Virus genome (UHGV): UHGV-1374526
Reading direction: 5' to 3' (one strand)
DNA length: 64,000 nucleotides
From: a virus
This document shows positions 1 to 60,989 of this stretch, piece after piece. A model generated the notes under the pieces. That model saw only the letters and a list, made by a program, of their open reading frames with translations. It made no database searches and was not told where the DNA came from. The number at the start of each line of letters is the position of its first letter. The stretch's first letter is position 1. The position numbers and the translations under genes are program-made.

Positions 1-56
1 ACGGGTTCAACGGGTTCAACGGGTTCAACGGGTTCAACGGGTTCAACGGGTTCAAG
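1..56. repeat. Tandem 10-bp repeat (ACGGGTTCAA) x ~5.6 at the window start
   Basis: Direct reading: acgggttcaa repeated head-to-tail from position 1. It may continue upstream of the window. Confidence 0.9.
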
Positions 57-102
57 ATAGTTAAGGATTCATAACTATTAAGGATTCTTAAACATTCCCC
101 TG

Positions 103-303
103 TAAGTCCGGTCTAACTTTTAAGTCCAGCCTAACATTGTAAGTGCCGTCTAACTTTATAAGTCCAGCCTAACTTATTAAGTGCCGTCTAACTTTTAAGT
201 CTGGACTAACTTTTAAGTCTGGACTAACTTATTAAGTCTGGACTAACTTTTAAGTCCAGCCTAACATTGTAAGTGCCGTCTAACTTTATAAGTCCAGCCT
301 AAC
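103..303. repeat. Iteron-like array of ~11 tandem 18-19-bp units TAAGT-N5-CTAAC plus a 3-4-nt linker
   Basis: Constant flanks TAAGT and CTAAC surround a variable 5-nt core (CCGGT, CCAGC, GCCGT, CTGGA) in an ordered pattern. The units carry no spacers, so this is not CRISPR. Confidence 0.85.
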
Positions 304-310
304 AATCTTT

Positions 311-345
311 GAAGATAGATAGTCCGATATTTGACTATCTGACGG
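311..345. repeat. Left copy of a ~33-bp direct repeat (AGATAGATAGTCYRATATTTGACTATYWG); the right copy is at 581-616
   Basis: Near-identical copies flank the 346-580 segment that holds the triple 42-bp repeat. Confidence 0.8.
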
Positions 346-446
346 CAAATCCGCAAGGACGGGCCGCACGCCGATTGCACCGCTACAGGTGCGCAAGATA
401 TAGGGGCATGACAATTTGACATACAAGATATAGAGGTTTTACATTT

Positions 447-572
447 TTGTAAAAAGAGATATAATTTTATATCAATATTGCTATAATGTCTCAAAAAGAG
501 ATATAATTTTATATCAATATTGCTATAATGTCTCAAAAAGAGATATAATTTTATATCAATATTGCTATAATG
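447..572 (+). promoter_or_regulatory. Three perfect tandem 42-bp repeats, each with an extended -10 promoter (TGcTATAAT) and a 7-bp inverted repeat GATATAA-TTT-TTATATC
   Basis: TATAAT sits at 482-487, 524-529 and 566-571, each preceded by TGc. An AT-rich segment lies upstream and there is no good -35. The embedded hairpin has a 7-bp stem and 3-nt loop. Confidence 0.6.
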
Positions 573-580
573 TCTCAAAA

Positions 581-616
581 AGAGATAGATAGTCTAATAT
601 TTGACTATTAGTGAGG
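581..616. repeat. Right copy of the ~33-bp direct repeat
   Basis: Matches 311-345 at ~30 of 33 positions. Confidence 0.8.
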
Positions 617-1512
617 GAAAGATACTTATACCCGTATGGGTATGCTTCATAGGTTGCTGATACTTAATCAGTCCCAGACTGGACAATTTGAGGGCAAGAC
701 CCTGCCCCTTTTCTGCCTTCTCCAGCACCTTCAATTTCATTCCCTATCGGATTAGTAGGATTACCATTTGCCGATTTTGCATTATATGTATTATGCGAAG
801 TATGGAAGCGGATTGCTTAGAGTATCAATGAGTTACGCATATCAGGGTGTCAATGGGAAACAGACTTTGCACCCTCGGATTCCTAGGAGACCAAGGCACA
901 CCGTTTCCCTACAAGTCCCACATGCTCAAACGGTTGCAACAGATTCCGAGGATTCAATGGGTTGCATGCCGTACCGTTCCCGTGACAGGGGCAGGGGCAG
1001 TTCAGGGTAGGCAATGCACCATTCCCGTTGCAACACGGTGGCATGTCTTACCGATTCCGGTGCATGTGGGGGAGAGGCAGGCCCCTGAAACATACCGATT
1101 CCGGTGCAATCAGGGGCAAAAAGGTTCCGTGATGCACCGATTCCGTGGGCATAGGGGGAAACTGGATGCCAAGAAATACCAAGTACCACCACGGTTTCCC
1201 GGGCTCCGGGGTTGCACGCGGCCCATAGTAAATAGTTGGGTCAAATTTTTTCCGTGGGGTACGGGGGAGGGAGTACCCTTCTGGGCATGTCAAGCAAAAT
1301 CGACATGCGGCGGGTACATGGGTGGGTACATGGTCATGGCCGCTTCGCGGGGTGCGTGGGTTCCGGAGGTTCAACATGATGGTCATGACCTCTGGTCTGT
1401 TTCAGCCTCGTCTGGTCTGTGACCCATTCCCTCTATGTCAAGCAAAATCGACACGCGGCCATTCCACGGGGGACGTATCGACCTAGAAGGCGGGTATACC
1501 CTTCGGGCGGGC

Positions 1513-1575
1513 AGTTATAGCGGACCAGCGGTTGTGGCGCGTTCTAGGGTAGGACCCTCGATTAAATTCGGGCAA
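1513..1575. repeat. Copy 1 of a ~62-bp GC-rich repeat (agtt.tagcggacc...gcgcgttctagggtaggaccctcgatt.aattc)
   Basis: Near-identical to 1990-2052. A second pair (tgtcaagcaaaatcgacaYgcggc) lies at ~1289-1322 and 1437-1470. Confidence 0.8.
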
Positions 1576-1989
1576 ATTTACAAGAGTGTGACGGGGTATA
1601 GGTAGCGAGATGGTACATTAGTCATGAAACAGGAGATAGGGCACTACCATCGACCAAATTTGCGCACGGCGGGCATAATGCGACGGAGCGGCTCTCGCGG
1701 ATTTGGCGGCAAAGAAAAAGCCCGCAGGTAGCTTGACGAGACTACCCACGGGCGTAACTATGGAAAATGCCTGTAGAAAGGAGAGTGTTTAGTCCGCTCC
1801 TGTGGCGAGCAAGTTCCTTGCTTGGGATAGCCAGAAGCATTGGGCTTAGCTGGTTCGGTTGCCGTTCGGAGCGAACAGGTGCAACATACCACATCAGGGG
1901 AGAAAGTCAAGAGGAAATTGGTGTGATGGCGCGTTTACGAATTTAATCCAGTGTGGCGGGGTAGAAGGAGGGGATGGGGTCCGGGTGGA

Positions 1990-2052
1990 TAGTTGTAGCG
2001 GACCGCCCCGTGCGGCGCGTTCTAGGGTAGGACCCTCGATTGAATTCAGGGG
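1990..2052. repeat. Copy 2 of the ~62-bp GC-rich repeat
   Basis: Matches 1513-1575 with few substitutions. Confidence 0.8.
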
Positions 2053-2112
2053 ATTTGGGGATGGGGCGTACACACATGTGGGCGCGTGCGCACAAGAGGA
2101 CACACAAAGGTC

Positions 2113-2140
2113 TTGACATTGGTGTGAGGTTTGGTATAGT
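2113..2140 (+). promoter_or_regulatory. Sigma70-type promoter TTGACA-N16-TATAGT
   Basis: TTGACA at 2113-2118 and TATAGT at 2135-2140, with a 16-nt spacer. Confidence 0.55.
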
Positions 2141-2146
2141 TGCCGC

Positions 2147-2214
2147 AGTGTTCCGACTGGTGCATTGTGGTATGGCCCCGGGGTAGACTTGTTCTGCCTC
2201 CGGGGTTTTCTTTT
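2147..2214 (+). ncRNA. Putative ~70-nt small RNA: promoter at 2113-2140, intrinsic terminator at 2176-2214
   Basis: A predicted TSS ~2147 is followed ~30 nt later by a GC stem (ccccgggg / cctccgggg) and the U-run ttttctttt. No ORF lies between the signals. Confidence 0.35.
2176..2214 (+). terminator. Rho-independent terminator-like hairpin plus T-run
   Basis: An ~8-bp GC stem (2176-2183 pairs with 2198-2205) is followed by ttttctttt. Confidence 0.45.
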
Positions 2215-2381
2215 GGAGAAAGGACAAGGCCTCTCGCCCTGTCAAATTCGACACATCTCGTTCCAGCTCAATACACAATGACGCGGAAGAGAGCCGAGTT
2301 AGGACAGGAAGGACAGGAAGGACAAGAGGAAAGTACTCGCGTAAGAGGTTTACCCTCATCAGGTTAGAACGATTTTGACCG

Positions 2382-2488
2382 GAAAGGACGAAGGACAAAC
2401 TCTCTGCCCCATATATATATATATATAAACCCCTATATAATATATAATATAATATATAATATTTTTTTACTTGTCCTTTGTCCTTTTC
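2382..2488. promoter_or_regulatory. Large inverted repeat of GGACAA half-sites (gaaaggacgaaggacaaa ... ttgtcctttgtcctttt) flanking a (TA)n / AT-rich tract at 2411-2468
   Basis: Direct reading. Further GGACAA/GGACAG copies sit at 2298-2330. It is candidate origin or operator architecture. Confidence 0.6.
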
Positions 2489-2622
2489 AAAAAAAGGAAC
2501 CTCACCCATGTTGAAAATCAATGAGTTATGAAAGGACAACCACCTTGTCCTCGGAACCCCCGGAACCCACGTACTCCAAGGTCTCCAAAAGCACCTAACA
2601 TGCACAGCATAAGCGGATTATG

Positions 2623-2657
2623 AAAAGGACAAACCGCCCTCATCCTCTTGTCCTTTT
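2623..2657. promoter_or_regulatory. Operator-like inverted repeat AAAAGGACAA-N15-TTGTCCTTTT, with a related site AAAGGACAA-N5-TTGTCCT at 2531-2551
   Basis: Perfect 10-bp arms, with the same half-site as the 2382-2488 region. Confidence 0.6.
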
Positions 2658-2684
2658 CTCCAAGGCACAGAGTATCAACGGATT

Positions 2685-2865: not shown

Positions 2866-3849
2866 ATGTGGCGGCCATTATTATCACAAACCAAAACGAA
2901 CATGCAAATAAATTATACCAATGACATGCAGAAGAGAGGGGCATTCCACCTCTTCCTCCTGAACGAAGTCCTCTACAACATGGGAGAAAGTTATGCCAGC
3001 CCGAAGGTACTTGCTCCCGTCTACTTGCAGGAACTGCTCATTCATGGATTGCTTACTCCCACAAAGAAACACCCCGCGAAGCGGAGGACGTTGGGAGAGG
3101 TCTCCTATCAGCACCGGGCACTCTTTGAGCGATTGAACAGGGTGAAAGATACGGGCTACCTCAATCCAATAGCGGAGGACATTCCCTTCCATCGAGACAC
3201 CTTGTACGGTCCCATGACCTCGATGGAACAATTCGAAACCACCGACACGGTGACGAAAATAACTCCCGAACTGCCCGAATCCCTTAACGTCCTCATCTCG
3301 CTTGTGCTTCTCAACGGCGCACCTGTAACCGAGGAATACATCACACAGCGGGCGAAAGGACCGGAGGGTAATCTGGACTTCGACTTCCGCTGGTTCAGTG
3401 CCATGTTCCTCACGTCCTGCCCCTATGGCCGTGAGCCTCGCTACTGTCTCTCCCAAGTGGGCATGGACTTTGGCTGGAAGGTATATGACTATGTTCTTGA
3501 CCACTATGAGCATGTGCCTAATGCCAGCTATTGGAGAACGAAGTTGCCAGCTACGGAATTGGGGTCTCCTTTCACTCTCAACCCCAACCCGGCTCCGGGG
3601 TTCCAATATAAACACAGCTTCATTATCCTTAGTCTCCTTGGTGACTTTATGGATGTCTCGCGCATAACGAAGTCCGACCTTGTTCGCATCCTTCAGCTCC
3701 CCGGCGGTGAGCGTAGCGTAGAGAATGCGCTCTCCGAGCTGACGTCCGAAGGTTTTGCCGAGTATGATGAAGAGACGCGTACCTATGCTCTCACCCACCT
3801 CGGCGCAGTCATGTATGGCCTATACGCTACCCGCATCATGGAAATCTAA
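2866..3849 (+). CDS. Hypothetical early protein; a C-terminal DNA-binding-like region is possible
   Basis: A 327-aa ORF sits directly downstream of the promoter. The overlapping antisense ORF 2884-3798 was rejected from context. The start could also be the internal Met at 2902. Confidence 0.45.
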   Translation: MWRPLLSQTKTNMQINYTNDMQKRGAFHLFLLNEVLYNMGESYASPKVLAPVYLQELLIHGLLTPTKKHPAKRRTLGEVSYQHRALFERLNRVKDTGYLNPIAEDIPFHRDTLYGPMTSMEQFETTDTVTKITPELPESLNVLISLVLLNGAPVTEEYITQRAKGPEGNLDFDFRWFSAMFLTSCPYGREPRYCLSQVGMDFGWKVYDYVLDHYEHVPNASYWRTKLPATELGSPFTLNPNPAPGFQYKHSFIILSLLGDFMDVSRITKSDLVRILQLPGGERSVENALSELTSEGFAEYDEETRTYALTHLGAVMYGLYATRIMEI

Positions 3850-3862
3850 TCTCTTACCTCGA

Positions 3863-6733
3863 ATGACCACAGCACTACTCAACGATGAAACAGTTCAGAA
3901 ACTTGAACTGACCTTTACCGCACCCCGCATCTCCCAGTTGCAACTGGCCGAAGGTATGAAGAAGCTCCCCACCGGGGGTAGTTGCAACCGCGCCGTCGCC
4001 ATTGCCCTGCCGGAGGTCCTTCGCCTTCTCATGGACATGCCGATTGAGAATCGGGAACTGATGCAGTATTACTATCAGGTACAACTCTTTAAGGTGATGC
4101 AGGGAAAGCTGGACGAGAACTCGCTCTCCATGCCTCCCGTATATAAGACCATCCTCTCCAACTGGCGCAAGCATGGGCTGGAAGCTAAGGATATTAAGCC
4201 CGCGCTTCCTGCCCTCGTTCCTTCTGTCCAGTTCCTAAGCAAGCCCGGATTGTATGACTACGCCCTCGACAGCAAGGGTGCAAGGTACTATACCAACCGT
4301 AGCCTCGTCAGCGTGGATGGCACGTCGTGGCGGCATACGGGTATCTTCGGAATTGACGTGGACCTCAAGGAGAACAAGAAACATACCGCGGAAACCCTTC
4401 TCGCTACAGCGCAGGAGAAACTCCCCCAGCTGGATGGCTTCCTCTTCGCGTATGTCAGCCCCAATCAGGGGATTAAGGCGTTCTTCCAAATCTCCAACTC
4501 TACGCTCCAATACCTGAACCAGAACCCGCAGGTGGTGGAGGATGAGGGAAATGAAGAACTGGACGTGAAGCGATTGGCAAATGAACGCATCTATCTCCAC
4601 AAAGCAGTATATCATTCCCTCGCGCAGTACATCCACGAGGGAACCGGATTTGTTCTCGACATGGCCTGTACTGACCCTGCGCGGATGCAGTTCTTCTATC
4701 TGGACACCTTCATCCCCGGAACCCCCGGAACCCCTCGATTCCATGTCCCCGACATGGAGAAGGCGAAAGCGGACTACCTTCAATACGACAAGAACCGGGC
4801 GGTCAGTTACGAACTCCCGTCCGTGGCTCCCGGTGCGCCTCGCCCCAAGATATTCGAGGACTTCATTGCGTGGTTGAAGGTGAACGAGTATTACGATACC
4901 GCCGAAGGCCTCTCCCGCATGGACTATATTAAGGGGGACGGTTGCCTCTATGGCGAGTGCCCACAGTGCAAGGGAGGCAAGTCGGGCAATAGTCAGAACA
5001 CGGACCTTCGCTTCTACCCCAATCCCCAGTACCCCCGGCAGTCCTACTTCCACTGCTTCCATGCCAGTTGCAATGGCGCGAACCCGGAGATTACGTCGGT
5101 GCAATGGCTCTTCGACATGTACTTGACGGAGTTGGAGGGGGAAGCCGAGAAGAAGGCAGGGGTTGAGCCGTGGTGTCAGGACCCTCTCCTGATGAAGTGC
5201 TTCATGCAGGGAATTGCTCCGGTAAATACGAACACCCCTCTCCCGGAGGTCAGCGCGTTGAAGCTCTGCTCTCTCAAGTTCCCCTATGTCCGAAAGAACA
5301 AGGCGGGCAAGAGCATCCCCATCCTGACGGACGAGAACATCAAGTATCTTCTCCATCATGGCCTAAATCTCCGTGCCTTCCGTCGAATGAACACGAACGA
5401 ACTCCTGCTCTTGGACTTTAAGAACAGTAGGTGGTACGAGACGAGCAATACTATATTGAGCAAGATTTCAAGCTTCTGGCAGTTGATAGTTCCCGGTCAG
5501 GCGATTCCTATTCAACGCCTTCGCGAAGCCTTGTCGAGTATTGCACAGGCCAATTACTACCACCCGCTGGCTACGTTCGTCAGCTCCCGTCCTTGGGATG
5601 GGCAGGACCGTTTGCGTGCGTTCTTGGACTACCTCCCCATGAATCAGGATGTAGACATGCCCGAAGGCTGGACCCCGGACAAGTATCGGGACATGGTGCT
5701 TACGACATGGCTCATCACCCTGTGGAAGCGCGTGACCCGCCGTCTCTGCTTCCTCACCCATGTGGAATCCCAGACCAGCTTCCCGCAGAACTACATCCCC
5801 ATGCTCACTGGTGCACAGGGGCTGGGTAAAACGAAAGCCACGGACTGGTTGTTCCGTGGGGTCCGTAATGACGTGGCTAGCTCCATCGAAGGATTGAATA
5901 GTGCGGATAGCGTTGTCCAGATGGCCCGGCACTCTGCCATCATCTTGGACGAGATTGATGAAGAAGTCGCTAACAAGGCGAAGGAGAGTAAGTTGAAGCG
6001 AATCATTACCGGGGAATCTGAAAGTTGCCGTGTTGCTTTCTCCCAGTCTCCGGGAACCTATGAGTACTGCGCAAGTATCATTGGGAGTACGAACCAAGAA
6101 GAGGTATTGAGAGATACCACAGGTACTCGCCGTTACTATCCGGTAATCCTAGGTCCACGTACCATGTCGGAGGAAGAAATCCCTGCCGGGTTTAGTGCCA
6201 ATAGCTGGGCGGTGGAGAAGCTCTTTAAGCTGGACAACCAGCAACTCTGGGCACAGATTAAATACATGGTAGACGCCCATGAAGATGGCGAATACCGTTG
6301 GGCTAATCTGGAAAAAGTCGGTGCATTCCTCGCAGAACAGTATGCCAGTTGCCGAGGCAATGATACTGACCTGACGAAGTACCTCGTCCCCGTGGCTCTC
6401 AAGGATATGGACACGAAGGGAGAGAGGCTCTCCAAGAAGATACCGGGCGACTTTGGCACTATGCACAATATCCTCGCCTATGTCCGTAAGAACTTCGGAG
6501 ACATGGAGAAGGTGGAGAACTGGGCAGACGCTAACTTCAAACGAGACCTCATTGCGGCCTACGGTTCCGATTCCTTGGTCCGCCACAATGTCAAACGCAC
6601 CGAGGACCCGAGGCAAATGAAACGCTACTTCTTCATGCCGATTGACATTTGGATGAAGGAAGCAAGCGCAGAAACGAAGGCGCGGGTATATTCGCAATAT
6701 GAACACATTAAGGCACTTGCGGAAACCCTGTAA
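3863..6733 (+). CDS. Primase-helicase fusion (AEP/PrimPol-type primase, zinc-binding region, SF3/D5-like helicase)
   Basis: N-terminal GIFGIDVDLK (AEP DxD motif) and Cys/His cluster CPQCKGG...HCFHASC. C-terminal Walker A LTGAQGLGKTKA and Walker B AIILDEIDE. The start was moved to the in-frame ATG at 3863 to avoid overlapping the upstream gene. Confidence 0.75.
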   Translation: MTTALLNDETVQKLELTFTAPRISQLQLAEGMKKLPTGGSCNRAVAIALPEVLRLLMDMPIENRELMQYYYQVQLFKVMQGKLDENSLSMPPVYKTILSNWRKHGLEAKDIKPALPALVPSVQFLSKPGLYDYALDSKGARYYTNRSLVSVDGTSWRHTGIFGIDVDLKENKKHTAETLLATAQEKLPQLDGFLFAYVSPNQGIKAFFQISNSTLQYLNQNPQVVEDEGNEELDVKRLANERIYLHKAVYHSLAQYIHEGTGFVLDMACTDPARMQFFYLDTFIPGTPGTPRFHVPDMEKAKADYLQYDKNRAVSYELPSVAPGAPRPKIFEDFIAWLKVNEYYDTAEGLSRMDYIKGDGCLYGECPQCKGGKSGNSQNTDLRFYPNPQYPRQSYFHCFHASCNGANPEITSVQWLFDMYLTELEGEAEKKAGVEPWCQDPLLMKCFMQGIAPVNTNTPLPEVSALKLCSLKFPYVRKNKAGKSIPILTDENIKYLLHHGLNLRAFRRMNTNELLLLDFKNSRWYETSNTILSKISSFWQLIVPGQAIPIQRLREALSSIAQANYYHPLATFVSSRPWDGQDRLRAFLDYLPMNQDVDMPEGWTPDKYRDMVLTTWLITLWKRVTRRLCFLTHVESQTSFPQNYIPMLTGAQGLGKTKATDWLFRGVRNDVASSIEGLNSADSVVQMARHSAIILDEIDEEVANKAKESKLKRIITGESESCRVAFSQSPGTYEYCASIIGSTNQEEVLRDTTGTRRYYPVILGPRTMSEEEIPAGFSANSWAVEKLFKLDNQQLWAQIKYMVDAHEDGEYRWANLEKVGAFLAEQYASCRGNDTDLTKYLVPVALKDMDTKGERLSKKIPGDFGTMHNILAYVRKNFGDMEKVENWADANFKRDLIAAYGSDSLVRHNVKRTEDPRQMKRYFFMPIDIWMKEASAETKARVYSQYEHIKALAETL

Positions 6734-6752
6734 AATTTCTTCTAAAAACTTC

Positions 6753-6780
6753 TTGACAAAAATCTAATCTTTGATACATT
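6753..6780 (+). promoter_or_regulatory. Sigma70-type promoter TTGACA-N16-TACATT
   Basis: It sits in the 6734-6856 intergenic gap. Confidence 0.5.
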
Positions 6781-6856
6781 GGCCTCGTCACCGGGATTCC
6801 GGGGCGGGGCCAATCCCGTTCCGCTAATCCCCTCGAATACAACTAAGCAAACAAGC

Positions 6857-7246
6857 ATGACTACGACAACCGACGACAACATGATTACCGAGTTGAAAGC
6901 TCTTGAATCCGAGCTTCGCTCACAGGTGGAAAAAGCCGAAGCGGAATTGAAGTCCCTTCGCAATAATCACAACCGCATTGTCAAGCTAATCAATCTCCTT
7001 GATGGTCTTGGCAACTTGATGAAGAATACGCACGTTACCACGGTTGCGGATTCCCCTCGCCCCGGCTATAGCAAGAATGGCAAGAAGCTGGGCCGCCCGT
7101 CCAATGAACGTCTCGCCAACTTGAAGGCGCAGAACCAGAACCTCCGCGAACGGTATGAACTTAGCCAGAAGCGTGACCAGCTGAACAAGTGCATTGATAG
7201 CCTCGACTGGATTATCGACTTGCAGGAAGAAGAAGGTGAATACTAA
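6857..7246 (+). CDS. Hypothetical coiled-coil protein
   Basis: ORF in the rightward gene train. Its first in-frame ATG lies downstream of the promoter (the ORF-track start at 6779 is TTG). The sequence is heptad-like (ELKALESELRSQVEKAEAELKSL). Confidence 0.4.
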   Translation: MTTTTDDNMITELKALESELRSQVEKAEAELKSLRNNHNRIVKLINLLDGLGNLMKNTHVTTVADSPRPGYSKNGKKLGRPSNERLANLKAQNQNLRERYELSQKRDQLNKCIDSLDWIIDLQEEEGEY

Positions 7247-7258
7247 ATCTAACCTCTT

Positions 7259-7591
7259 ATGCCCAAAAGACTTATGACATTGGAAGATACAACATACTCT
7301 CAAAGATTTAAGGATAACTTCATGGACATGGTACGGATGCTTCCGTATGCCTTCTTCTGTCCTTTACTCTTTGTCACGTACCTTAAATCACACCTGCCCC
7401 AGTCTTCTTGGATGATGTGCTTCTTGACCGTTGTCGGCATGAGCCTGATTCAGATTCTCTTTGCCGCGGCTATGGTTTCCATTCCGAAGAAGGAGCATAT
7501 GTTCTATGGACTGGTCATTCTCGGTACTGCCTTCTTTATTGTCCCTTTCCTCTTCTGCCACTGGATGGGTATTAACATAAATAAATTATGA
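7259..7591 (+). CDS. Small membrane protein (multiple hydrophobic helices)
   Basis: Hydrophobic segments FFCPLLFVTYL, MMCFLTVVGMSLIQILFAAAMV and LVILGTAFFIVPFLF. Confidence 0.4.
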   Translation: MPKRLMTLEDTTYSQRFKDNFMDMVRMLPYAFFCPLLFVTYLKSHLPQSSWMMCFLTVVGMSLIQILFAAAMVSIPKKEHMFYGLVILGTAFFIVPFLFCHWMGININKL

Positions 7592-7848
7592 AAGACCTAG
7601 CAGAATTATCCCCCTACATGGGCATCTATTACCTCTCCCTATTTATGGGCCTTCTGGTCAATGGTATGCCCCTACTGGCCTCCCTCATCTTCTCGCTCAT
7701 TCTCGTCCTCATCGTTCTGTGGGTGTGGTCCTTCATCTACATCACCCTCACGCATCTGTTGAAACGGAGTAACCGGGACATGAACGTCAATATCTTTGGC
7801 CTCTCCGCGACATTGGTCACTCTCTTCTTCATAATTATATCACACTAA
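7588..7848 (+). CDS. Small membrane protein
   Basis: Its start overlaps the previous stop (ATGA). It has two long hydrophobic helices. Confidence 0.4.
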   Translation: MKDLAELSPYMGIYYLSLFMGLLVNGMPLLASLIFSLILVLIVLWVWSFIYITLTHLLKRSNRDMNVNIFGLSATLVTLFFIIISH

Positions 7849-7851
7849 ACT

Positions 7852-8235
7852 ATGTACAACGAAATTGCAATCGCCGCCCAAACTGTTGATTCCCACTTCT
7901 CCTATATGGGATTAGAGGAATCAGCCGCTGACCTCCTGCGCCATCTTCTGTGGGAGATTGAAGAATACCGGGAAGCTGACGCGGAGGACCGCGTAAAGGA
8001 GGCAACCGACATCGCCATTCTCGCATTGCGCCTAGTAGCCGCTACGGGGCGCGATGAAGGTTTCTCCTTTGAGGATGGGATATTCCTCGCAAACGAAAAA
8101 TGCCGGGAAGTCGTGAACCGCATGAACCGTGCCGTGAAGATGTACAAGAAGGACAGAACCGCCGGAATTCCTATGAGCACCCCACAAGAATACTACGCGC
8201 AAGCGAAGGAACAACTAAATACACCCAAACACTAA
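7852..8235 (+). CDS. MazG-like nucleotide pyrophosphohydrolase
   Basis: An EExxE...E..D-type acidic helix pair (LLWEIEEYREADAEDRVKEATDIAILALRL) typical of the MazG/HisE fold. It is a common auxiliary gene in phage replication modules. Confidence 0.45.
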   Translation: MYNEIAIAAQTVDSHFSYMGLEESAADLLRHLLWEIEEYREADAEDRVKEATDIAILALRLVAATGRDEGFSFEDGIFLANEKCREVVNRMNRAVKMYKKDRTAGIPMSTPQEYYAQAKEQLNTPKH

Positions 8236-10154
8236 TGCACGAAGAAATAGACCACCCCCCTATATCATTTTCACTGCCTCGCATTCCGGGGTATGAAATG
8301 GAGATTACAGACGACCAGACCAAACTCACAGGCGATACTCTTGCCGTTGACTTTGAAACGTATTATGAGGGGAAATATTCCCTCAAGTTCATGGACCCGC
8401 ATTCCTACTGTCTGGACCCACGGTTCGACGCATACATCATGTCCGTCTATGACGGGAAGTATTGCTGGGTAGGACATCCGAAGGATTTTGACTGGGAGAA
8501 AACTACGAAGGACAAAACCCTCGTCGCGTTTAACGCCAGCTTCGACTATGCCGTTTACCTCTTCGCACTTCACGCACCGGGGGCCAAGGGCATCCCGTGC
8601 ACGCCAAGCTTCCAGCCGCCCTTCAAGGAGTGGCTCTGTTCCCGTGCCGCTTCCAACTATCTCGCCATCTATGGCTCTCTTGACAAGATTGTCGCAAAGC
8701 TTTGGGGTGTAGAGATTAGCAAGGAGGTCCGAGCCAAGGCCGAAGGCGTTGATTTCCGCAAGATGGAAGTCATCCCAGACGACATGAAGGAATACGTGGC
8801 GGGCGATAGTTACTACTGTCTCGCCTTGTGGGACAAGATGAAGAACTTCTGGCCGGAAGATGAACGGGAATGTTGGCTCAATACCTGCATCATGGGATGG
8901 CGCGGAGTTCCGACTTCCCGTCAGTATCTTCTTGACGGATTGGAGAAACTCCATCAGGCGCAGGAGGAATACAAGGAAGCTATCCCGCTTGAAAAGAAAC
9001 TCTCCATTCCCCAACTACGTAGAGCGTGCGAGGAACTGAACATCCCGCCGCCGGAGACGACGAGTAAGGCCAGCGAACTATTTACGGACTGGCTGGAAGA
9101 GTATGGCCACCTCGTCCCGTGGGTAACTCTTATCGGGAAGTACAGGAGCGTGAACCGCATGATTAGCATTACCGAGCGCATGCTTTCCCGCGTCTATACT
9201 GACCATGAAGGGATAGAACGTCTCCCCTATACGCTGACCTACTGTGGCGCAAGCACGGGTCGTTGGACTGCCGGGGGCGACAAGCTCAACCTGCAACAGC
9301 TTAACCGTGAAGACGTTCTGGGCTTTAACCAGCGCAACGCCATTCAAGCACCCGAAGGGTATAAGCTCGTGGTATGTGACTGGGCTGGGATTGAAGCACG
9401 TCTGACCGCTTGGCTCTGCGGGCAGGAGAAAATTCTTGATACCCTCCGTGCTGGTGAGAAGGACATCTATGCCGCTAACGCGAAAGGTTGGGGCCTCATC
9501 CCCGCGGATGTCAAGGACTTCAAACAGTACTGCAAGGAAACTCCGGGGCAAGCGGACCTTCGTCAGCATGTGAAGGCGGGGGTACTTGCTTGCGGCTTTA
9601 GTGCTGGATGGAAGGCTATTCAACGCTCGAACCCCGGAATGGACAGGGACCAGTGCCAAGCGATTGTGGACATGTACCGCAGTCGTAGCCCAGAAGTGGT
9701 AGCATGGTGGAGAGAGTTGGACGCATTAGCGGCTCGCGGCTATCGTACCCCCTCCCATAGCTTCGCGCTCTCCCTTCCCTCTGGCCGGAAGCTCTATTAT
9801 CGTAACTGTTACAAGAAACTCATTCAACCCAAGGACGGTCGTCGTCCCTATTTCGCAACCTGCGTCGATTTCGGGTACAAGTCCTCCATCGTCAATACTA
9901 ACCTCCTTAGCAACAATAACATCCAGTCAATCGCACGTGACCTCATGGTCCGCACGTTCAACCGCCTGTGCAAGGAATTAGAGGGTGCGCAACCTATCCT
10001 TCTCGTGCATGACGAAGCCGTAGTGATGGTTCCGGCTGACCATGCCGAGGAATACGCCCAGCGCATCGAACAGATAATGGAAGAAACTCCGCAGTGGGCT
10101 TCATCCCTTCCGCTCCTTGCCGAACCTGAAATCATGGACAAGTATCGCAAATGA
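8235..10154 (+). CDS. Family A DNA polymerase with 3'-5' exonuclease domain
   Basis: Exonuclease motifs LAVDFETY, FNASFDY and YVAGDSYY. Polymerase motif A VCDWAGIEARL, motif B KAGVLACGFSAG and motif C LLVHDEAVV. The start was placed at ATG 8235 to avoid overlapping the MazG-like gene. Confidence 0.8.
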   Translation: MHEEIDHPPISFSLPRIPGYEMEITDDQTKLTGDTLAVDFETYYEGKYSLKFMDPHSYCLDPRFDAYIMSVYDGKYCWVGHPKDFDWEKTTKDKTLVAFNASFDYAVYLFALHAPGAKGIPCTPSFQPPFKEWLCSRAASNYLAIYGSLDKIVAKLWGVEISKEVRAKAEGVDFRKMEVIPDDMKEYVAGDSYYCLALWDKMKNFWPEDERECWLNTCIMGWRGVPTSRQYLLDGLEKLHQAQEEYKEAIPLEKKLSIPQLRRACEELNIPPPETTSKASELFTDWLEEYGHLVPWVTLIGKYRSVNRMISITERMLSRVYTDHEGIERLPYTLTYCGASTGRWTAGGDKLNLQQLNREDVLGFNQRNAIQAPEGYKLVVCDWAGIEARLTAWLCGQEKILDTLRAGEKDIYAANAKGWGLIPADVKDFKQYCKETPGQADLRQHVKAGVLACGFSAGWKAIQRSNPGMDRDQCQAIVDMYRSRSPEVVAWWRELDALAARGYRTPSHSFALSLPSGRKLYYRNCYKKLIQPKDGRRPYFATCVDFGYKSSIVNTNLLSNNNIQSIARDLMVRTFNRLCKELEGAQPILLVHDEAVVMVPADHAEEYAQRIEQIMEETPQWASSLPLLAEPEIMDKYRK

Positions 10155-13701: not shown

Positions 13702-13730
13702 TTGACCTTCTGGACTTTGTGGGATATATT
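13702..13730 (+). promoter_or_regulatory. Sigma70-type promoter TTGACC-N17-TATATT ending 5 nt before the ATG (leaderless)
   Basis: -35 at 13702-13707 and -10 at 13725-13730, with the ATG at 13736. Confidence 0.45.
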
Positions 13731-14252: not shown

Positions 14253-16091
14253 ATGGCACGACACTTTACCCGCTACGGACGACAATGGGAGTACGGAGTA
14301 TCAGAGCTTGACATCGAACTCTGGTGCTTCAAATACGCATGGCCCGAAGAGAAGGGAGGGCTGGGCAGGTATGGACACGCTAAGAACGCCATCAATCTCC
14401 TGTGGAATTACAAGGGCAGTCCTACTCCCATTATCTGGACGCCGTGGATTGAACGGATGATTGAAACCGCGTGCAAATATGATGTGGTCATCATGGGTGG
14501 AGGCTCGTCCTCTGGGAAGTCATTATCTATGGCTATCATGGCGACGCTCTTCTATCTGGCCGACCCCGTCGATACCCTTTGCCTAGTCACATCGACTACT
14601 ATTGAAGGTGCGAAGAAACGTATCTTCAAGGATATTAAACGGTTGTGGCGCAAGGAATTTCCGGGCAAGCTCGTTGATGGCAAGGGACAGATTAAAGGCG
14701 TGAACGAGGACGGAGATATTGACGATTCCCGCGGCATCTCCATTATCCCCTGCGCGAACGTCGGCGACCCCAGTAGCCGATTTATCGGTATTAAGGCAAA
14801 GAACATGCACGTCTTTTACGACGAGCTTTCCGAATTGCCGATTGAACTCGTCGAGGTGTGGCGTACCAACCTCATCACCAACAGAGCGGACACGCCTCCT
14901 ACCCTGATGGCCGCCTCTAACCCCAAGAGCCGCACCGATGCCTTTGGTGTTATGGCTATGCCCAAGGATGGGTGGAACAGCGTTGACATCTTTGAGGAAT
15001 ACGAGTGGGAGACCAAGGACGGGATTTACATCCGCTTCGACAACACCCAGAACCCCCGCATCAAATATGGCCGCGAGGATTGGAGCTTCTACACCCCGTT
15101 GGACATCGTTCAGCAAACGATTGAACAATATGGGGAGAATAGTCCGTTCGTGATGCGGTTCCACCGGGCAACCTTTTCAGACGATACGGAAGAAGGTTCA
15201 CTAATGTCGGAGGCTGAAATTTACGGCAGTGGCGCGGATGCCATGCCCGTCTGGGGAGACGGCGAGTTGATTACCATCGCAGGATTGGACCCTGCCTACA
15301 CCAACGGCGGGGACCAGTCATGTTTGAAGCTCGCCAAAGTCGGACGAACGGTTGAAGGGCTTTGGGCGTGCGCGGTGTTCCGTACCTATTTGTTGAAGTC
15401 TACGTCCGACAAGGAACGGATGAAGCAAAGGAACTTCGACATCGCCCAGCAAGTTGGAGAGATTCTCCGGGCCAACGGGGTTGAAAGTAAGTACCTTGCC
15501 GTAGACGTAACCGGAGGTACTGGTTTCATCGACATCCTCGCCCAGCATGTCGGCACGGACTTCCAGACGGTCAGCTTCGCGGGTATGGCGAGCAAAGTGC
15601 CCATTGGCCTGTTGCAGAATCAGGAGGCATGCCAGCAATATAGCAACAAGGTCTCCGAGCTTTGGGGATGTATGAAACTGGCAATCAATGCTCGCCAACT
15701 TTATGGCCTCGACCCGACAACTATCGTCGAGCTTAAATCCCGGCTCTACACCATGAACGGAACCCGAATTGCCGTGGAACCCAAGGCGGCCATGAAGAAA
15801 CGGATTCATAAATCCCCGGACAACGCGGACGCACTAGCACTTCTCGTCCACGTGTGCCGGGGAATCATGGGACCGGAGTTCGGTAAGATTAGGCTTGACA
15901 TTCAGAACCATAAGGTGGTAGAACATCAAGAGGTAATCAAATATCGCGAAGACGGAACCGCATATATTGAAGCCGCAGACATTGGCAGGTATCTCGGAGG
16001 CTTCGTCGGAGGCAATGCCCCCGCTCCCGCTCCTGCCCGCGACACCTTTGCCTCCGACGTAACCGCCGCAATGAACATGCTATGGACCTAA
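14253..16091 (+). CDS. Terminase large subunit
   Basis: Walker A VVIMGGGSSSGKSLS followed by an ATPase and nuclease-domain-sized ORF (612 aa). It sits at the head of the morphogenesis block. Confidence 0.75.
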   Translation: MARHFTRYGRQWEYGVSELDIELWCFKYAWPEEKGGLGRYGHAKNAINLLWNYKGSPTPIIWTPWIERMIETACKYDVVIMGGGSSSGKSLSMAIMATLFYLADPVDTLCLVTSTTIEGAKKRIFKDIKRLWRKEFPGKLVDGKGQIKGVNEDGDIDDSRGISIIPCANVGDPSSRFIGIKAKNMHVFYDELSELPIELVEVWRTNLITNRADTPPTLMAASNPKSRTDAFGVMAMPKDGWNSVDIFEEYEWETKDGIYIRFDNTQNPRIKYGREDWSFYTPLDIVQQTIEQYGENSPFVMRFHRATFSDDTEEGSLMSEAEIYGSGADAMPVWGDGELITIAGLDPAYTNGGDQSCLKLAKVGRTVEGLWACAVFRTYLLKSTSDKERMKQRNFDIAQQVGEILRANGVESKYLAVDVTGGTGFIDILAQHVGTDFQTVSFAGMASKVPIGLLQNQEACQQYSNKVSELWGCMKLAINARQLYGLDPTTIVELKSRLYTMNGTRIAVEPKAAMKKRIHKSPDNADALALLVHVCRGIMGPEFGKIRLDIQNHKVVEHQEVIKYREDGTAYIEAADIGRYLGGFVGGNAPAPAPARDTFASDVTAAMNMLWT

Positions 16092-16743: not shown

Positions 16744-16771
16744 TTGACAACGTCGTCCATTCGCGTATAGT
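16744..16771 (+). promoter_or_regulatory. Sigma70-type promoter TTGACA-N16-TATAGT ending 6 nt before the ATG (leaderless)
   Basis: -10 at 16766-16771 and the ATG at 16778. Confidence 0.5.
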
Positions 16772-28253: not shown

Positions 28254-28281
28254 TCTTGACAAATAATAAAATTATTATATG
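28254..28281 (+). promoter_or_regulatory. Sigma70-type promoter region (TTGACA at 28256-28261; AT-rich -10 around 28276-28281)
   Basis: The -10 assignment is ambiguous (spacer 14-16). The ATG at 28290 is within ~9 nt, so the transcript is probably leaderless. Confidence 0.4.
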
Positions 28282-28289
28282 GTGGTGGC

Positions 28290-46102: not shown

Positions 46103-49100
46103 ATGGCTATTGACTTTAGTACCGCCAATATGTCCGACTTCACTCCGAAGTCGGGAAGCAGTATTGCACGTGAACAGCGAGCCGCAGAAAGGCACGCCGC
46201 GTGGCAAGAGACGCAAGCGCAGAAACAGCAGGACCGAGAACAGAAAGCACTGGACCGCGAGCAAAGGTTAGCGGAAAAGAAACAGACCCGTGCCGAGAAG
46301 GGAGCGACGGCGACCGCAGACTATGACACCTTCCTCTTTAAGTCTGTTGATGACTTTGCGGAGAAACAGAAAAAGGATGCGGAACACGCAAATAATGTAG
46401 AATGGCAAAATAAATCCCGCGCCCATACGGAACAAGAATGGAAAACCGCCGAGGAAAATAAAGCCCTCGACATCTTGAACAAAGGAAACCGTGGGTACAG
46501 CTTTGAGGGAATCGACTACATGAAAGACTATGTAGACCGCGGGGAAGATGCGCTGGTCGATTTGAAGGCCGCTTCCCGCGGTGATAGCGAGGCCATTAAG
46601 AAGCTTGCCAACAATACGGGACTTACCGTTGTGTCTTCTTCCGAGCTTACGCCTACGCACCCCACCTTCTTATCCCGCTCTGGCTTCGGAAGTGGAGAGG
46701 ACGGGAACCCCGTCGTAACGGAAAAGTTCCTCGCCATTGCCGCGGACAGAAACCGTAACGCAAAGGCGGTTGCCAAAGGCATTGCCAACACAATGGAAAA
46801 GGCCCGGAAGGATTACCTCAACTCGAATCTAGATGTTGGAACGGGTAAACCTACGGCGCAAGCCATCGAGACCGCACCTATTGCTTACACCGCAGAAGAA
46901 ATAGAAAGCGTCATCAATACGATTAGGCGCGAAGACATTGGCAACTATCGTGCCGCTAAGGCTCTTTACGACAAACACCGCTCTTCTTCGACGGAAGGCG
47001 TGCAGAAGAAAACCCCCAGCCAAACGAGCGTGGGGGAGCTTGGCGTTGGCGAATTCTCTGATTCAGCACCTTCATTTACTGGGAATGTTTTTGCTGAACT
47101 CGCCAACCTTTCCAAGTCTCCCAGCAAAATGTTCCAGCTTGTCCGCGACTACGGGGATTACCTTTCCCGGAGTACGGAAGATATTGAATCCCCGGAATCT
47201 GCTACAGCGGATGCGAAACAACTCCATACAGACCAAGCAAAACTCATTTCAAAAAAAGAAAAACCTGTTGAGGATAGGATTCGTGAACAGATAGAAACAG
47301 CCGACAAAATCGTAAGACGCCTCGAAGAGGACTACACTGGCCTTCCCTATCTCGAACTTCGCGACGCGCTTCTCAATCCAGAGGCCGCGGCCTCTGCCCT
47401 TCTGTCTTTAGTCCCCGGTGCTGACATGGACGCAATACGTGCACGGGCAAAGGTCATTACCGAGGAAGTTCGCCGCCAGAAGGACCGCCCTCTGACCGTC
47501 GAAAACCCCGAACAGATTGGCATGAGTGAGGCTATACTGGAAGCCGTGGCCACAAGGTTTCCGGGGGTTCCAAAATCTGCCCTGCGCCAAGCGGGAGTAA
47601 CCAAACTGATTCAGGACTATACCGCCAAAGCCACGCCGAAAGGCACTCTCATGGATGCAGTCAAAGGCGCACTGGCTAACTACCGAAGCACGGCGGGACA
47701 AATTGCGGACGTACTTACCTTCCAACCGGATAATAGTGTGGGTAAGTACGCCGACCCAATGAGCTTGATGGAATGGAGGAAGGGAACGAGGCGTGGCTCA
47801 TGGTGGTATGGCATGCCGGGCGGCCCGTCCTTTGAAGTCGGACCGGAGAGGTTGAAGGAATACATGGCCCAGTACCATATTGAAAGTACTCGCGATGCCC
47901 TCAACTCCCTCTCCCATGCCGCACGTATGGGTGACTTGGGCGTTGGCCGTGGCAGTCTCTTTGCGTACAATCCGCACACCAAGGAAGTTGATACGAACGC
48001 CACGCTCGAACTGAATCCCAATGCTCTCTACAATGATAAGCTGATGGACCAGAGCATTGAGGCTCTCCGTGCTAGTGGCGCGGACGAGAAGCTTATCAAT
48101 CGCACCATTGAGAAGTTCCAGAACCTCCGCAAGAAATCCGCACAGGAACTTGTGAAGGACAACATGGCATTGGACGAGACGCTGGGGACGCTTCGCGATA
48201 CGTGGCTTGGCTCCGGCTTGCAGTTCAACCCTGTCTTGACTGAATCCATGAAGCATCTGGACAAGTACCTTTCCTTCAAGAATTTCTACAACGAACAGAA
48301 GGAAGCGGGCAAGAGCGACGAGGACATCCTCTCCGCATGGCAGGAGAAAGGGCAAGCCACCTTCGATTCTGTTCTCCGTGGGTTACAGATAGGTACACAC
48401 AAGGCAATCGACCTTGGGACAAGTACCGCCTATGGTGCTCTTCTCTTTGCACAGAATGCAGTTGGCAGTCGTGCGGCGATGGAACATACCCGCACCCTCT
48501 GGGACCAGCTGAACAAAAAACAGGAAGCAGAAGCCGAGTTGGTTCGAGGCAATATCCTTGCGGACTATACTGCGGAAATCGCTAACCTCGGCTACCAAAT
48601 GGTAGCAACCGCGGGGGCTGGTAAAGTTGGTGGCCTCGCTGGCCGTGCACTGACACGTACCGCGCTCAATAAATTCATGAAGGCAACGGCTAACGTCGTA
48701 GCGAAGCGGGCCGAAGCTCTTGTCCCTGCCGCCCGTCCGGGATTGGCGGGACGTTTGAGTGGAACTATTCAGCGCAACCTCGACAACCTTGCGGCGTTGA
48801 ACCTCGAACGGGCAGGAGCCGGAGCCGGGGTAAATCTTAGCATCATCTCGCAGGTTGCACCGAATGCTTACTCCGACATCTTCTATACCATTTATGATAG
48901 GGAGATGGAAGGGAAGGAACCGACTGCCGAGAACACGAACAGGGCACAGAGCATTGCCAACATGCGTGCTCTCTTTGGTGCGGCTCTCGTATCTACTGGT
49001 AGTACTCTCATCAACAACCGCGCAGGTATGGATTCCTTCATGCGTAAGATTGTTGGGGCTAAAAACCTTCGCGGTCAATCTCCATTCCAAACTCTTGAAC

Positions 49101-52100
49101 GGAAGATGGCCGGATGGAGAAGCAAGCCATTTAAGGAGATGAACACGAAGGAAAAGACGTTTGCCGTTGCTTCCTATCTGTACAGCCAGAGCAAGGCCGT
49201 AGTGGAAGGAGCCACCGAAGAACTGGCAGACGAATTCCAAGAGTGGGCGTTTACCGAACTGGTGAAGAACGGAGAAATCTCCGAATCCTCTATTGCCACT
49301 ACTGACCAAGTGATTAGCACAGGCATGAAGATTGCTTTCCTCGGAGGTATCGGCGGCTACGTTGGTAGCCACTTAGCTGGTGAAGGGAACATACGTTTCC
49401 AAACCGAAGCCGCTCCCACTCTCGATGTAAAGGATGCTACTTCCATGCTACCGGATATTACGAAAGATGCGAGCAACATCATCGAGGAAACGGGCAAAGC
49501 CATTACCAAAAACAATGTGCCGGAAAGCTTGGTAGAAACCGGAAAGAAGGTTATCGAGATTGCCGGGGAGAAGGGAGATGCCGCGGAAGTTGCCCGCGAA
49601 TGGGTGGACAAATCCATTGCCCATGAAAGTCTGGCAGTCTCCGATGAAACCCGCAAGGCGTGGGTGGAAGGAGCAACCCGTATGGGCATCAGCAACTTCA
49701 CCCAGTTCCGCAACCTAGTGGAACGGGCCTCCGAAATATATACCTATGAGGGCAGTGCCGCGGCAAGCTCATTCATGGCAGAAGCCATTAACGACCTGCC
49801 CAATACCCTGTCATTCCCAAATAAGGAAAACCTCGACACCATGCGCACCATGCTTTCGGAGGCCCTTGATGCTATGGGAGACCGGGTTCAGGTTATCGAA
49901 GTAGACGACGACCTGTCCATCATTACTACAGGGGACGAGGACCTTGATGCCGCCATTAACGTTATTAACGGATTGACGGAAGCCGCGGCTACCACGGAAC
50001 CCAAGGAATCCCCGGCTACCGCGGAACCCACGGAATCCCCGGTAGCTATTGCCCGGAAGGAGAGGGACAATGCTATTGCCCCCATCACTGCTATGGTAGA
50101 GACGGGAGTAGTTACCCCAGAAGCTACCGCTTCCGTGGATAACATGGATGCGGCAATCACCTCGTTCGACCCCAACACCGGGGCATGGCTCTCATCCGGT
50201 TCACCTCTGGACCGCGGCGCGAAGCTCGTCTCCCTGAACGAGATGACCGGGATTAACGCCCCCATGATTACCAGCAACACGGGAGAAACCGTTGTCATCG
50301 CTCCGCACGCAAGCATGTACAACACAGGTGAGGGAGGGACACCCAGCACCAAGTGGGGGGACAAGGTCTCCGCTCTCAATCTCCCGACGGATGGGACTGG
50401 CGCAAATGCCTACGGCACGCTTCGCGGCCTTCAAGTTAATGCCTCCCCCGCACAGGCCGCGGCCATTGATGGAGTGCTCCGCGCACTGCATGCCGCTGGT
50501 TTGGACGTCGCTATCCGTGCAACCAATGCCCCGGCGAACATCTCTTCCCCTGCCAGTATCACCTACATGAACGGCACGGACGGGAAGCTTGTCGGCGGTG
50601 TCATTGACCTGTACGTGAACCGGGATAACCCGATTGAAAGCGTAACGGGAACGGTACTACACGAAGTCATCCACCTCATTGACCGTCATCTTCGTACCAC
50701 CAACACGGACTATTCCCAGCGGATGGATAGGATTAGAAGCGCGATTGCAGAGAACTACAACAACATTGTCGATAGTCTCTCCGCTATGTATGACGCTAGC
50801 GTGGACATCAATGAGATGAACGCCATCGCCGCGCTCGCTTCCGACCTCAACTACGGTCTCCGCGGTGCGGACGAATTTGCCAGTGTCGCGTTCTCCAATC
50901 CTGTCATGAACTTCATGGTAGCGGAAGCTAGCGGAGACAATATCACCATCACGGATTTGGCTCGCTATGCCGAAGCGGCGGGAGGCCGGAAGCCCGTGCA
51001 CGTGCGCCTCGTCGAATGGCTTAAAGATTTGATTAGGGACATCAAAGATACTGCGGACGATATGGACGGAACCACCGCCGCAGAACGCGTGGCTGAATGG
51101 GATTCCTATGTGGCCCGCGTCGCGGACATGACCCCCGGCAAGTGGTTCGATATGCCTCGCACTCCGTCATGGAAAGTAGATGATACGGATTATACTATGG
51201 GCAACGGGGTAGATTATTTTAACCCGATGGCCTATGAGACCGACATGACCCGGAGATTGTCCTTCGGCCTTGGCGCAGAAATCATTGGCACGAAGGCCGG
51301 GAACTGGGTAACTAGTATTAAGAACGTATGGCAAGGCGTGTCTAAGGGCTTGGACAAAGCAGGCATCAATGTTAAGTCCGAGGAACAGAAGCTGGTTGTG
51401 CTGGAACAAATGGCCAATGTTAATGCGGCGTATGAACGCAGTATTAAACGCATTGACAAAATTGGTGATATGCTTCAACGCCGTGCGGATAATCTGGGCT
51501 GGGATGCCGCTACGCGAAAGAAATGGAGCAAGTCCATTCTTGACATGTCGGGGAATATGGACAACGATATTGACCCTGAAACTGTTGCACGCATTAACGC
51601 AGAGGCTCAAGCAGAAGTTCGTCAGCATGAACAGACCCGCGACTTCCGTATCGCGTTGGCTAAGAAGACTGTCACCGATGCCGTCAATAGGCACGCGGAA
51701 GCGGTGCGTCTGGCTAACTCCCTTGCGCTTAATAGTGAAGGGCGATTGGAAATCAACGACATGATGCGCCGGATTAAAGACATGAGCGGCAAGGGATATG
51801 GAGCCATGCTGGACAAGCAGGTAGCTCTCCCCATGCTCTCCCAGCAGATTCACAAATCTCTCTCCGACCTTGGCTCTCGTATCTCCGCGACGGGGGATGC
51901 CAATCTGGATATCACCTACTTTGGCCTTGCCCGCGACACGCAAAACTATCTCGCGGATATGATTAACGAAGTGGATAGTCCCTTCTCTATGGATGAACTT
52001 CTGGACAGGTGGTCCAACCTTCGCAATGACTTCCTCTATGCGGAGAGTACAAACCATCCCGTCATCGCTCCTATGATTCAGGACATCGCTAAGGCACGGG

Positions 52101-57485: not shown

Positions 57486-57486
57486 A

Positions 57487-60979: not shown

Positions 60980-60989
60980 GTTTTTAGGA

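Follow-up and report, generated by a model that had tools for sequence, protein, structure and literature searches.

What does a patchwork of short repeats at the very edge of a phage contig do, and does that edge mark the end of the genome? We analysed 64,000 nucleotides of the virus genome UHGV-1374526 (the whole stretch is called the window here), in which positions 1-620 hold a tandem array of 9-mers, eleven iterons and a set of promoter-bearing 42-bp repeats (Table 1). A first-pass annotation of the same DNA had seen three repeat systems and suggested an origin, a packaging (pac/cos-like) region or a partition-like centromere, possibly at a physical genome end. The repeat systems are real, but several of the measures given for them were wrong. 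We propose that they lie about 0.6 kb inside a boundary between a leading genome segment that may be exposed to host nucleases and a remainder that may not be, and we tentatively read them as a signal that acts at this boundary.

The source of the window is a virulent, uncultured phage of Akkermansia muciniphila, a major human-gut bacterium and a probiotic candidate in development. Relatives of the phage (cited below by locus number) are frequent in human-gut metagenomes, as contigs of 64-72 kb. Because the contig of one relative has a 69-nt terminal overlap within its iteron array, the genome map, of about 71 kb, is circular. Placing the right end of the window onto relatives indicates that ~7 kb of this map is missing from the window; it contains leftward genes throughout, and the early genes run 7.1 kb past the window end. 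Window positions 1 to ~2866, with ~330 bp further to the left, form a ~3.2-kb hub between divergent gene blocks. This hub divides ~14.5 kb of leftward early genes from rightward replication genes, and positions 1-620 are its middle. We consider the hub non-coding because codon periodicity is absent at 600-2250 but strong at 3900-6700.

The first evidence for a boundary comes from natural CRISPR arrays. Locus L012 (IMG/VR UViG_3300029014_000107, ~5244-9367), although filed as viral, is a type I-C CRISPR array with 62 repeats and 61 spacers, 34 of which match this phage family with a 5′-TTC protospacer-adjacent motif (PAM). A metagenome scan with the L012 repeat found 120 loci (L045-L164), including 116 arrays from human-gut metagenomes, with 1,562 unique spacers, about a quarter of them aimed at this phage family. 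The L066 array adjoins Cas4 and Cas1c, the type I-C signature, and this Cas1c is annotated at NCBI as Akkermansia muciniphila; the annotation and the matching spacers together identify the host as Akkermansia. A Bacteroidota host, considered because one domain is weakly BT4734-like and because Shine-Dalgarno sequences are missing, was rejected in view of the TTGACA/TATAAT-type promoters and the CRISPR link to Akkermansia.

For spacer mapping we used a composite genome of 71,078 bp, made of the window and the missing part from L019. It is matched by 343 of the 1,562 spacers, 303 of which map from -11 kb to +1.1 kb relative to position 1. Spacer density peaks at -2.2 to -1.0 kb and decays smoothly leftward. 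The right edge is sharp, with the last protospacers at 710-800 and 1138-1175. High-confidence spacers (TTC PAM, at most 5 mismatches, spacers exclusive to L012 left out) place 96 of 103 in the exposed zone, which is 17% of the genome (7.9 versus 0.12 per kb, p ~2e-64, 43 arrays), and distinct protospacer sites number 156 in the zone versus 15 outside. A further 106 spacers match relatives only; all of them lie at -8.6 to +1.05 kb, though those loci span 1.2-16 kb too. At least three spacers match the iteron array itself. TTC PAMs are plentiful past the edge (1.2-2.9 kb) and the flanking sequence at 1170-1290 is highly conserved. The edge is not a homology breakpoint, since the block at 590-2216 is conserved on both sides of it.

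The second line of evidence is the avoidance of CGCG. This tetranucleotide has a density of ~4.8 per kb over 2-56 kb of the window but is absent from 1-1216; the first site is at 1217 and ten fall in 1217-2338. The 9.5 kb to the left contain 6 sites versus ~45 expected, and 56-62.8 kb is intermediate. CpG as a whole is not depleted in the CGCG-poor zone. CGCG is the most differentially depleted of the 256 tetranucleotides (observed/expected 0.22 versus 1.15; next-lowest ratio 0.50), in a test that is partly circular because the zone limits were set from CGCG positions; the zone defined by CRISPR has 13 sites versus 60.9 expected. CCGCGG has one site inside the zone and 43 outside it, and nine relatives have the same CGCG pattern. 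GATC has a single occurrence in the whole 71-kb composite genome. The strong avoidance of CGCG and CCGCGG is limited to the early-left zone (1-1216 and 56500-64000 of the window, with 7 kb past its end) and, together with the scarcity of GATC, implies host restriction pressures of differing reach. General palindrome avoidance was rejected as a zone marker, as it is genome-wide and zone-specific only for CGCG-type sites. A literature search for a CGCG-specific restriction system in Akkermansia found nothing.

The CRISPR and CGCG edges agree within ~50 nt. From the two maps we infer that DNA left of ~1.2 kb would be exposed to host nucleases and DNA to the right would not, and that the left side probably enters the cell first. 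This segment would then be open to host defences until early proteins act. The boundary could be a leading genome end with slow, possibly transcription-paced, T7-like entry, or a T5-like injection-stop point. Because both signals decay leftward and transcription of the entire 14.5-kb early block leads away from the boundary, a leading end near 1.2 kb is slightly preferred. That the repeat region lies ~0.6 kb inside the boundary of first-entering DNA, in either form, seems to us about an even call.

The proposal as a whole, staged delivery, goes further, and we offer it as a working hypothesis with rather less than an even chance of being right. The leading ~12-16 kb would be delivered first and would alone be exposed to type I-C CRISPR and CGCG-specific restriction, and the repeat mosaic would be a cis-acting signal that anchors, caps or arrests DNA at the boundary. 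The iterons would be tandem sites for one dimeric DNA-binding protein, which may be conserved in the family or be provided by host or virion. On the leading DNA, they and the adjacent arrays might build up a nucleoprotein complex that anchors it, protects the end or lets terminase recognise a junction. We infer this scaffold role only from the position of the arrays, 0.6-1.5 kb inside the boundary, and from their conservation.

A packaging or terminus function, as suggested in the first-pass annotation, is supported to the extent that there is a sharp boundary at ~1.18-1.22 kb, with positions 1-620 about 0.6 kb away on its exposed side, but the locus lacks the marks of a pac or cos site. The large terminase gene is ~13 kb away, and the contigs of relatives end at scattered points that match repeats: within the iterons, the 9-mers or (TA)n at ~2448, or near 2800. 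The left edge of the window is not the possible physical genome end that had been suggested; position 1 is an assembly break. Relatives 98-99.7% identical read leftward through the array into ~330 bp of further repeats and then early genes. L167, for example (98% identical over 1-2233), has seven 9-mers, and before them the unique sequence GGTGGGATAG and then more arrays; read-through is also seen in L016, L011, L013, L017, L007 and L031. The window begins with exactly 55 nt of pure repeat, which appears to be what a k=55 de Bruijn assembler leaves on meeting a longer tandem array.

The iteron array has exactly eleven units, where about eleven had been counted before. In shuffled sequences the mean number of TAAGT-N5-CTAAC matches was 1.96 and none of 100 shuffles reached 12. 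The array is single in the 64 kb, and the sole other match is isolated and has one mismatch. The cores run CCGGT CCAGC GCCGT CCAGC GCCGT CTGGA CTGGA CTGGA CCAGC GCCGT CCAGC. This order is real, but its pattern is explained by duplication: units 1-4 (103-173) recur as units 8-11 (233-303) with 97% identity, and CTGGA is triplicated. The core variants had been taken to suggest two or three related DNA-binding specificities, a view we do not share, as they are mostly free positions in one site and turn over among relatives. The consensus over 161 units of the family is TAAGT-C-Y-N-G-N-CTAAC, in which only positions 8 and 10 are free. The two half-sites of a unit are 10 bp apart and form the quasi-palindrome T(A/T)AG...CTAA. 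The consensus arms and the quasi-palindrome argue for one dimeric binder rather than several specificities. Relatives have 3-25 iterons; L168 (JGI 3300045988 Ga0495776_032509, reverse strand; 99.7% identical) has 25 in a higher-order repeat. A scan for iteron pairs in 185,579 species genomes gave unrelated two-unit chance matches only and no relative of the phage. The 327-aa winged-helix-like protein encoded at the start of the rightward genes is an unlikely iteron binder: L165, whose gap to the primase gene is ~1.2 kb shorter, has no such gene called and yet keeps eight iterons.

The array at the window start is a perfect tandem, with a unit of 9 bp in 6.1 copies instead of the 10 bp in 5.6 copies of the first-pass annotation. 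It belongs to a longer mosaic that in relatives runs, from the early leftward promoter to the iterons, as (CCGGTTCCC)n, (TA)n, (ATTCTTTTGG)3, a 20-bp palindrome (AATGTTCCA-CR-TGGAACATT), (GCAATCGG)n, (CGGGTTCAA)n, the 17-nt module and the iterons. Unit counts were compared among relatives, a check that the annotation had proposed, and every array varies in copy number among genomes 85-99.7% identical: there are 1-10 9-mer units and 1-4 copies of TTAAGGATTC of the 17-nt module. The arrays occur in all relatives covering the region and have conserved unit arms. In L168 a deletion has taken out the palindrome and other arrays and joined (CCGGTTCCC)n to the point where the 9-mers end. A short (A/G)GATA(G/T)A motif is found on the plus strand at nearly all module junctions (53-60, 311-322, 394-403, 424-433, 456-465 (three times) and 581-592).

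To the right of the iterons are the three perfect 42-bp repeats described earlier, which we measure as 3.3 perfect copies. The bracketing direct repeat is also present; it measures 26 nt with 92% identity (313-338, 583-608), not 33 bp. The inverted repeat GATAGTC-N8-GACTAT(C/T) has two sites only in 64 kb, one in each direct-repeat copy. A triple promoter remains plausible, with sigma-70-type matches of the kind used genome-wide at 438-465, 478-507 and 520-549. The first, TTTACA-16-TATAAT (11/12), is made by the first unit junction, and the others, both TTGCTA-18-TATAAT, by junctions between 42-bp units; every unit also contains TGCTATAAT. Most relatives have no 42-bp copies, L031 and L167 have two, and L034 and L168 have three. 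The unit has no exact match in IMG/VR, and identical or diverged copies were found in relatives from ENA and JGI. The diverged copies of L031 retain both TATAAT hexamers and the GATATA...TATATC palindrome. The best reading of the 42-bp repeats is a rightward promoter that was duplicated in tandem in a lineage-specific manner, between two operator-like inverted repeats; the promoters are predicted to fire toward the non-coding block and the origin and replication genes that follow it. The early genes run leftward from promoters beside the arrays: a leftward promoter, TTGACG-16-TAAATT, lies ~330 bp left of the 9-mer array and is followed by the ~14.5 kb of leftward genes, many with promoters of their own. 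CAAGATATAGGGG was considered as a T7-like phage promoter spread over the genome and rejected, as there are two good copies only, both local.

The arrangement of these promoters allows a rival to staged delivery in which the iteron array is a transcriptional control element (operator, enhancer or insulator) for divergent early promoters and has no role in entry or ends. The array has the leftward early promoter on one side and the rightward promoters on the other, each iteron resembles a dimer site, the two operator-like inverted repeats bracket the rightward promoters, and the CRISPR/CGCG boundary, which lies elsewhere, is compatible with such a function. We nevertheless find it unlikely, although it is the rival that survives best. 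The array ends ~130 nt upstream of the nearest rightward promoter, its copy number ranges from 3 to 25 without compensation, no regulator could be assigned, and L006 and L011 have lost the promoter segment while the iterons remain.

Several observations weigh against staged delivery as well. L006 and L011 lack 304-582, i.e., everything between the iterons and the second direct-repeat copy, and L168 lacks most arrays left of the 9-mers; given these natural deletion variants, no single module is proven essential. The boundary is ~0.6 kb outside positions 1-620, so a role of the arrays there is read from position only, and no binding protein is assigned to any array. Relatives have no recurrent contig end near 1.2 kb. 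Homologues of T5 A1, A2 and dmp were not found, and there are no DnaA boxes, which have been proposed for the T5 stop signal, within 3 kb. Finally, primed adaptation alone can make spacer clusters and the strand bias seen, though not the CGCG pattern.

In the next rival, replication would start at the iteron array as it does in lambda or in iteron plasmids, which is close to what the first-pass annotation had suggested for 1-620. Lambda ori and the iteron origins of plasmids are made of tandem direct repeats, 18-22 bp long, that show dyad symmetry inside and are separated by A/T-rich spacers, and the 18/19-bp quasi-palindromic units here are built alike; the array is also unique in the genome and sits at the gene-orientation switch. 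Unlike in those origins, there is no AT-rich unwinding element beside the iterons (304-393 is GC-rich, and the AT-rich 420-600 is absent or deleted in relatives), and the neighbouring 304-582 is dispensable in L006 and L011. A better candidate is found 2 kb away in the module at 2220-2660, which adjoins the replication genes and co-varies with the primase-helicase. Its box is AAGGACAA in the window and L021, TGAGACAA in L020, L022, L023 and L027, and ATAACAAC in L031-L034 and L165, and the variant tracks ~110 C-terminal residues of the primase-helicase. L031 has an entirely swapped primase-helicase allele (27% identity) between flanks that remain 88-94% identical, and its origin boxes changed along with it. 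The TAAGT iterons do not co-vary with this initiator and are unchanged across lineages with differing boxes and primase-helicases. An iteron origin is accordingly improbable. The module at 2220-2660 resembles origins of the P4 alpha and SaPI Rep type, which also have short boxes in both orientations around an AT-rich tract beside a primase-helicase gene; the boxes are unrelated in sequence, and binding here is predicted from sequence. In P4 and SaPI, box specificity is linked to the C-terminal part of the primase-helicase.

Alternatively, the arrays could be non-functional, slippage-prone minisatellites whose order is an assembly artefact. Copy number varies widely, contigs of relatives break in the arrays, and the 25 units of L168 could be an assembly loop. 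This is nonetheless very improbable, because the arrays are found in every relative covering the region, variation spares the unit arms and G9 but affects positions 8 and 10 and the spacers, and the same 11-unit order occurs in three independent assemblies (the window, L167 and L171). The partition-like centromere of the first-pass annotation, as a parC or sopC type element of a plasmid-prophage, deserves almost no credence: the array has the tandem direct-repeat architecture typical of centromeres bound by ParR-like proteins, but no ParA, ParB, ParM, TubZ, ribbon-helix-helix protein, plasmid Rep or integrase was found among the 68 distinct open reading frames (ORFs) scanned with Pfam and PHROGs, and neither the species-genome iteron scan nor a plasmid collection contained related DNA.

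Table 1. Features of the window discussed in the text, in order of position (strand "." where none applies; TRF, Tandem Repeats Finder).
Feature	Position	Strand	Details
Tandem array (ACGGGTTCA) x6.1, cut by contig start	1-55	.	TRF period 9, 100% identity
About 2 copies of 17-nt module ATAACTATTAAGGATTC	56-100	+	Inverted repeat ATAGTTA-N8-TAACTAT at 57-78
Eleven iterons	103-303	+	Exact TAAGT-N5-CTAAC, period 18/19 nt
Direct-repeat copy 1	313-339	+	Inverted repeat GATAGTC-N8-GACTATC at 318-339, operator-like
Two CAAGATATAG(G/A)GG motifs	394-406, 424-436	+	Around TTGACA at 416-421; conserved in relatives
42-bp unit x3.3 (451-587), putative tandem rightward sigma-70-type promoters	438-587	+	Palindrome GATATAA-TT-TTATATC per unit
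Direct-repeat copy 2	583-609	+	Inverted repeat GATAGTC-N8-GACTATT at 588-609
Conserved non-coding block, G-rich, ~1.6 kb	590-2216	+	86-97% identical in relatives; no 3-nt substitution periodicity, unlike 3900-6700
Putative functional boundary	1138-1217	.	Last protospacers 1138-1175, first CGCG 1217
Promoter TTGACA-16-TATAGT (2113-2140) and intrinsic-terminator-like hairpin with T-run (2176-2214)	2113-2214	+	
Candidate replication origin	2220-2660	.	Eleven AAGGACAA boxes (2220-2655): five direct, AT-rich (TA)n 2411-2462, then inverted and mixed
327-aa protein (C-terminus winged-helix-like by eye), then VapE-like primase-helicase	2866-6733	+	
Large terminase gene	14253-16091		
Distal tail of CRISPR-targeted, CGCG-poor zone	60200-64000	-	Leftward early genes continue beyond window end on circular map

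The conserved non-coding block right of the repeats contains several further elements. A hairpin at 628-643, on the 5′ side of the block, keeps its stem among relatives while the loop varies. Folding of the whole block is unconvincing (z-scores -0.78 for the plus strand and -2.58 for the minus strand). There is an internal duplication of 90 nt (1484-1572 and 1962-2050, ~79% identical), and three ACCGATTCCG motifs are found at 1050-1160. Just right of the boundary, at ~1287, the relatives L006, L011, L016 and L031 show a variable tandem array, (TGTCGGT)n, of 0-6 copies. We predict a candidate small RNA of ~165 nt on the minus strand at 1710-1910, which would be transcribed from TTGACT-16-TATGTT, a promoter with TG, and end at a strong intrinsic terminator. 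It is nearly invariant in 13 versions and has no Rfam match; one hairpin is replaced with two compensatory pairs and a G-U that is workable on the minus strand only. Similarity to most relatives stops at 2087-2218. The promoter-like site at 2113-2140 is a strong one, ~35 nt ahead of the terminator-like hairpin; its product might be a very short RNA, or its transcription might activate the origin next to it. In L031 this promoter is found again, with a ~200-nt unit.

The window encodes a VapE-like primase-helicase, family-A DNA polymerase, helicase, exonuclease, large terminase, NAD-dependent ligase, ThyX and an endolysin. It also contains a 3231-aa ORF at 46103-55798, for which cultured phages (including by tblastn), Pfam, PHROGs and PDB sequences all gave no match. 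An N4-like phage, with this ORF as a virion RNA polymerase that uses hairpin promoters, was considered and dropped for want of any such similarity. The window has no tRNAs, nor any Rfam family at gathering or permissive thresholds. No DNA-level similarity to cultured phages or the plasmid collection was found, the large terminase has no protein match in cultured phages, and the best match of the DNA polymerase among them is only ~25% identical. Literature searches found no described virulent Akkermansia phage of this type and no papers about the samples.

Sites of the form TTGAC-N16-18-TAnnnT number 23 genome-wide versus ~5 in shuffles, 19 of them on the coding strand, and many genes begin 6-12 nt past such a site (e.g., 13702-13730, 16744-16771, 28256-28283 and 55815-55843). 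The mRNAs of genes that start 6-12 nt after a sigma-70-type -10 element would be leaderless, and Shine-Dalgarno sequences are almost absent. The leftward early genes have repeated promoter-plus-leader modules with a conserved GC hairpin (L016 6560-6700 and 6990-7080), and these dispersed repeats also interrupt assemblies. A TTAGAAACCTCA motif is found 15-27 nt upstream of start codons in the leftward early genes (in the window at 63126-63137, 63508-63519 and 63886-63897).

The share of type I-C spacers aimed at this phage family suggests that it is a dominant predator of A. muciniphila. Judging by the maps of spacers and CGCG sites, ~83% of the phage genome may evade host nucleases via late or protected entry. 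If this is true, a T5- or T7-like strategy has arisen in an unrelated phage, with the cis-acting boundary placed within ~50 nt, and staged entry may be readable from natural CRISPR arrays and restriction-site avoidance in metagenomes, also for uncultured phages. It would become possible to test directly, in a new system, the old question of which DNA signal stops or paces phage genome entry. The map also marks, for engineering or therapy with phages, the part of the genome that CRISPR may reach.

Of the known systems, T5 offers the closest parallel for the CRISPR map. Only its first-step-transfer DNA is susceptible to CRISPR and a source of primed spacers (PMC5389539), and free ends of injected DNA are described as spacer-acquisition hotspots (PMC8860600, in a passage citing Modell 2017 and Levy 2015). 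The T5 injection-stop (iss) region, Repeat Region 3, is untranslated and has nine DRD copies, inverted repeats and palindromes (10.1101/866236). Like it, the locus described here is a large untranslated repeat-rich region at the inner edge of small early genes, of ~3.2 kb, with at least eight repeat families and a 20-bp palindrome. In both phages it is only the first-entering 8-17% of the genome that is susceptible to CRISPR and gives primed acquisition, read here from natural protospacers, and restriction-site content differs between the two sides (EcoRI in T5, CGCG here). There is no sequence or protein homology, including the A1, A2, dmp and DnaA-box searches above. The signals here form a gradient that peaks beside the repeats, not a uniform block, and the arrays are hypervariable among close relatives, whereas the T5 repeats are reported to be highly conserved.

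T7 is the other model. It is said to have short tandem repeats beside its terminal repeat, followed by three strong promoters for host RNA polymerase (A1-A3), and ~19% of its genome reportedly consists of co-directional early genes drawn in by host RNA polymerase, which leaves early anti-restriction time to act. In contrast to T7, the triple promoter found here faces the opposite way to the early genes, ~1.5 kb separates the boundary from the first inward promoter, a phage RNA polymerase is not recognisable, and the terminal repeat, known in T7, is putative. As in T7, a host-type promoter near the putative leading end is followed by co-directional early genes; these make up ~20% of the genome and lead away from the boundary, and the exposure signals along them are graded.

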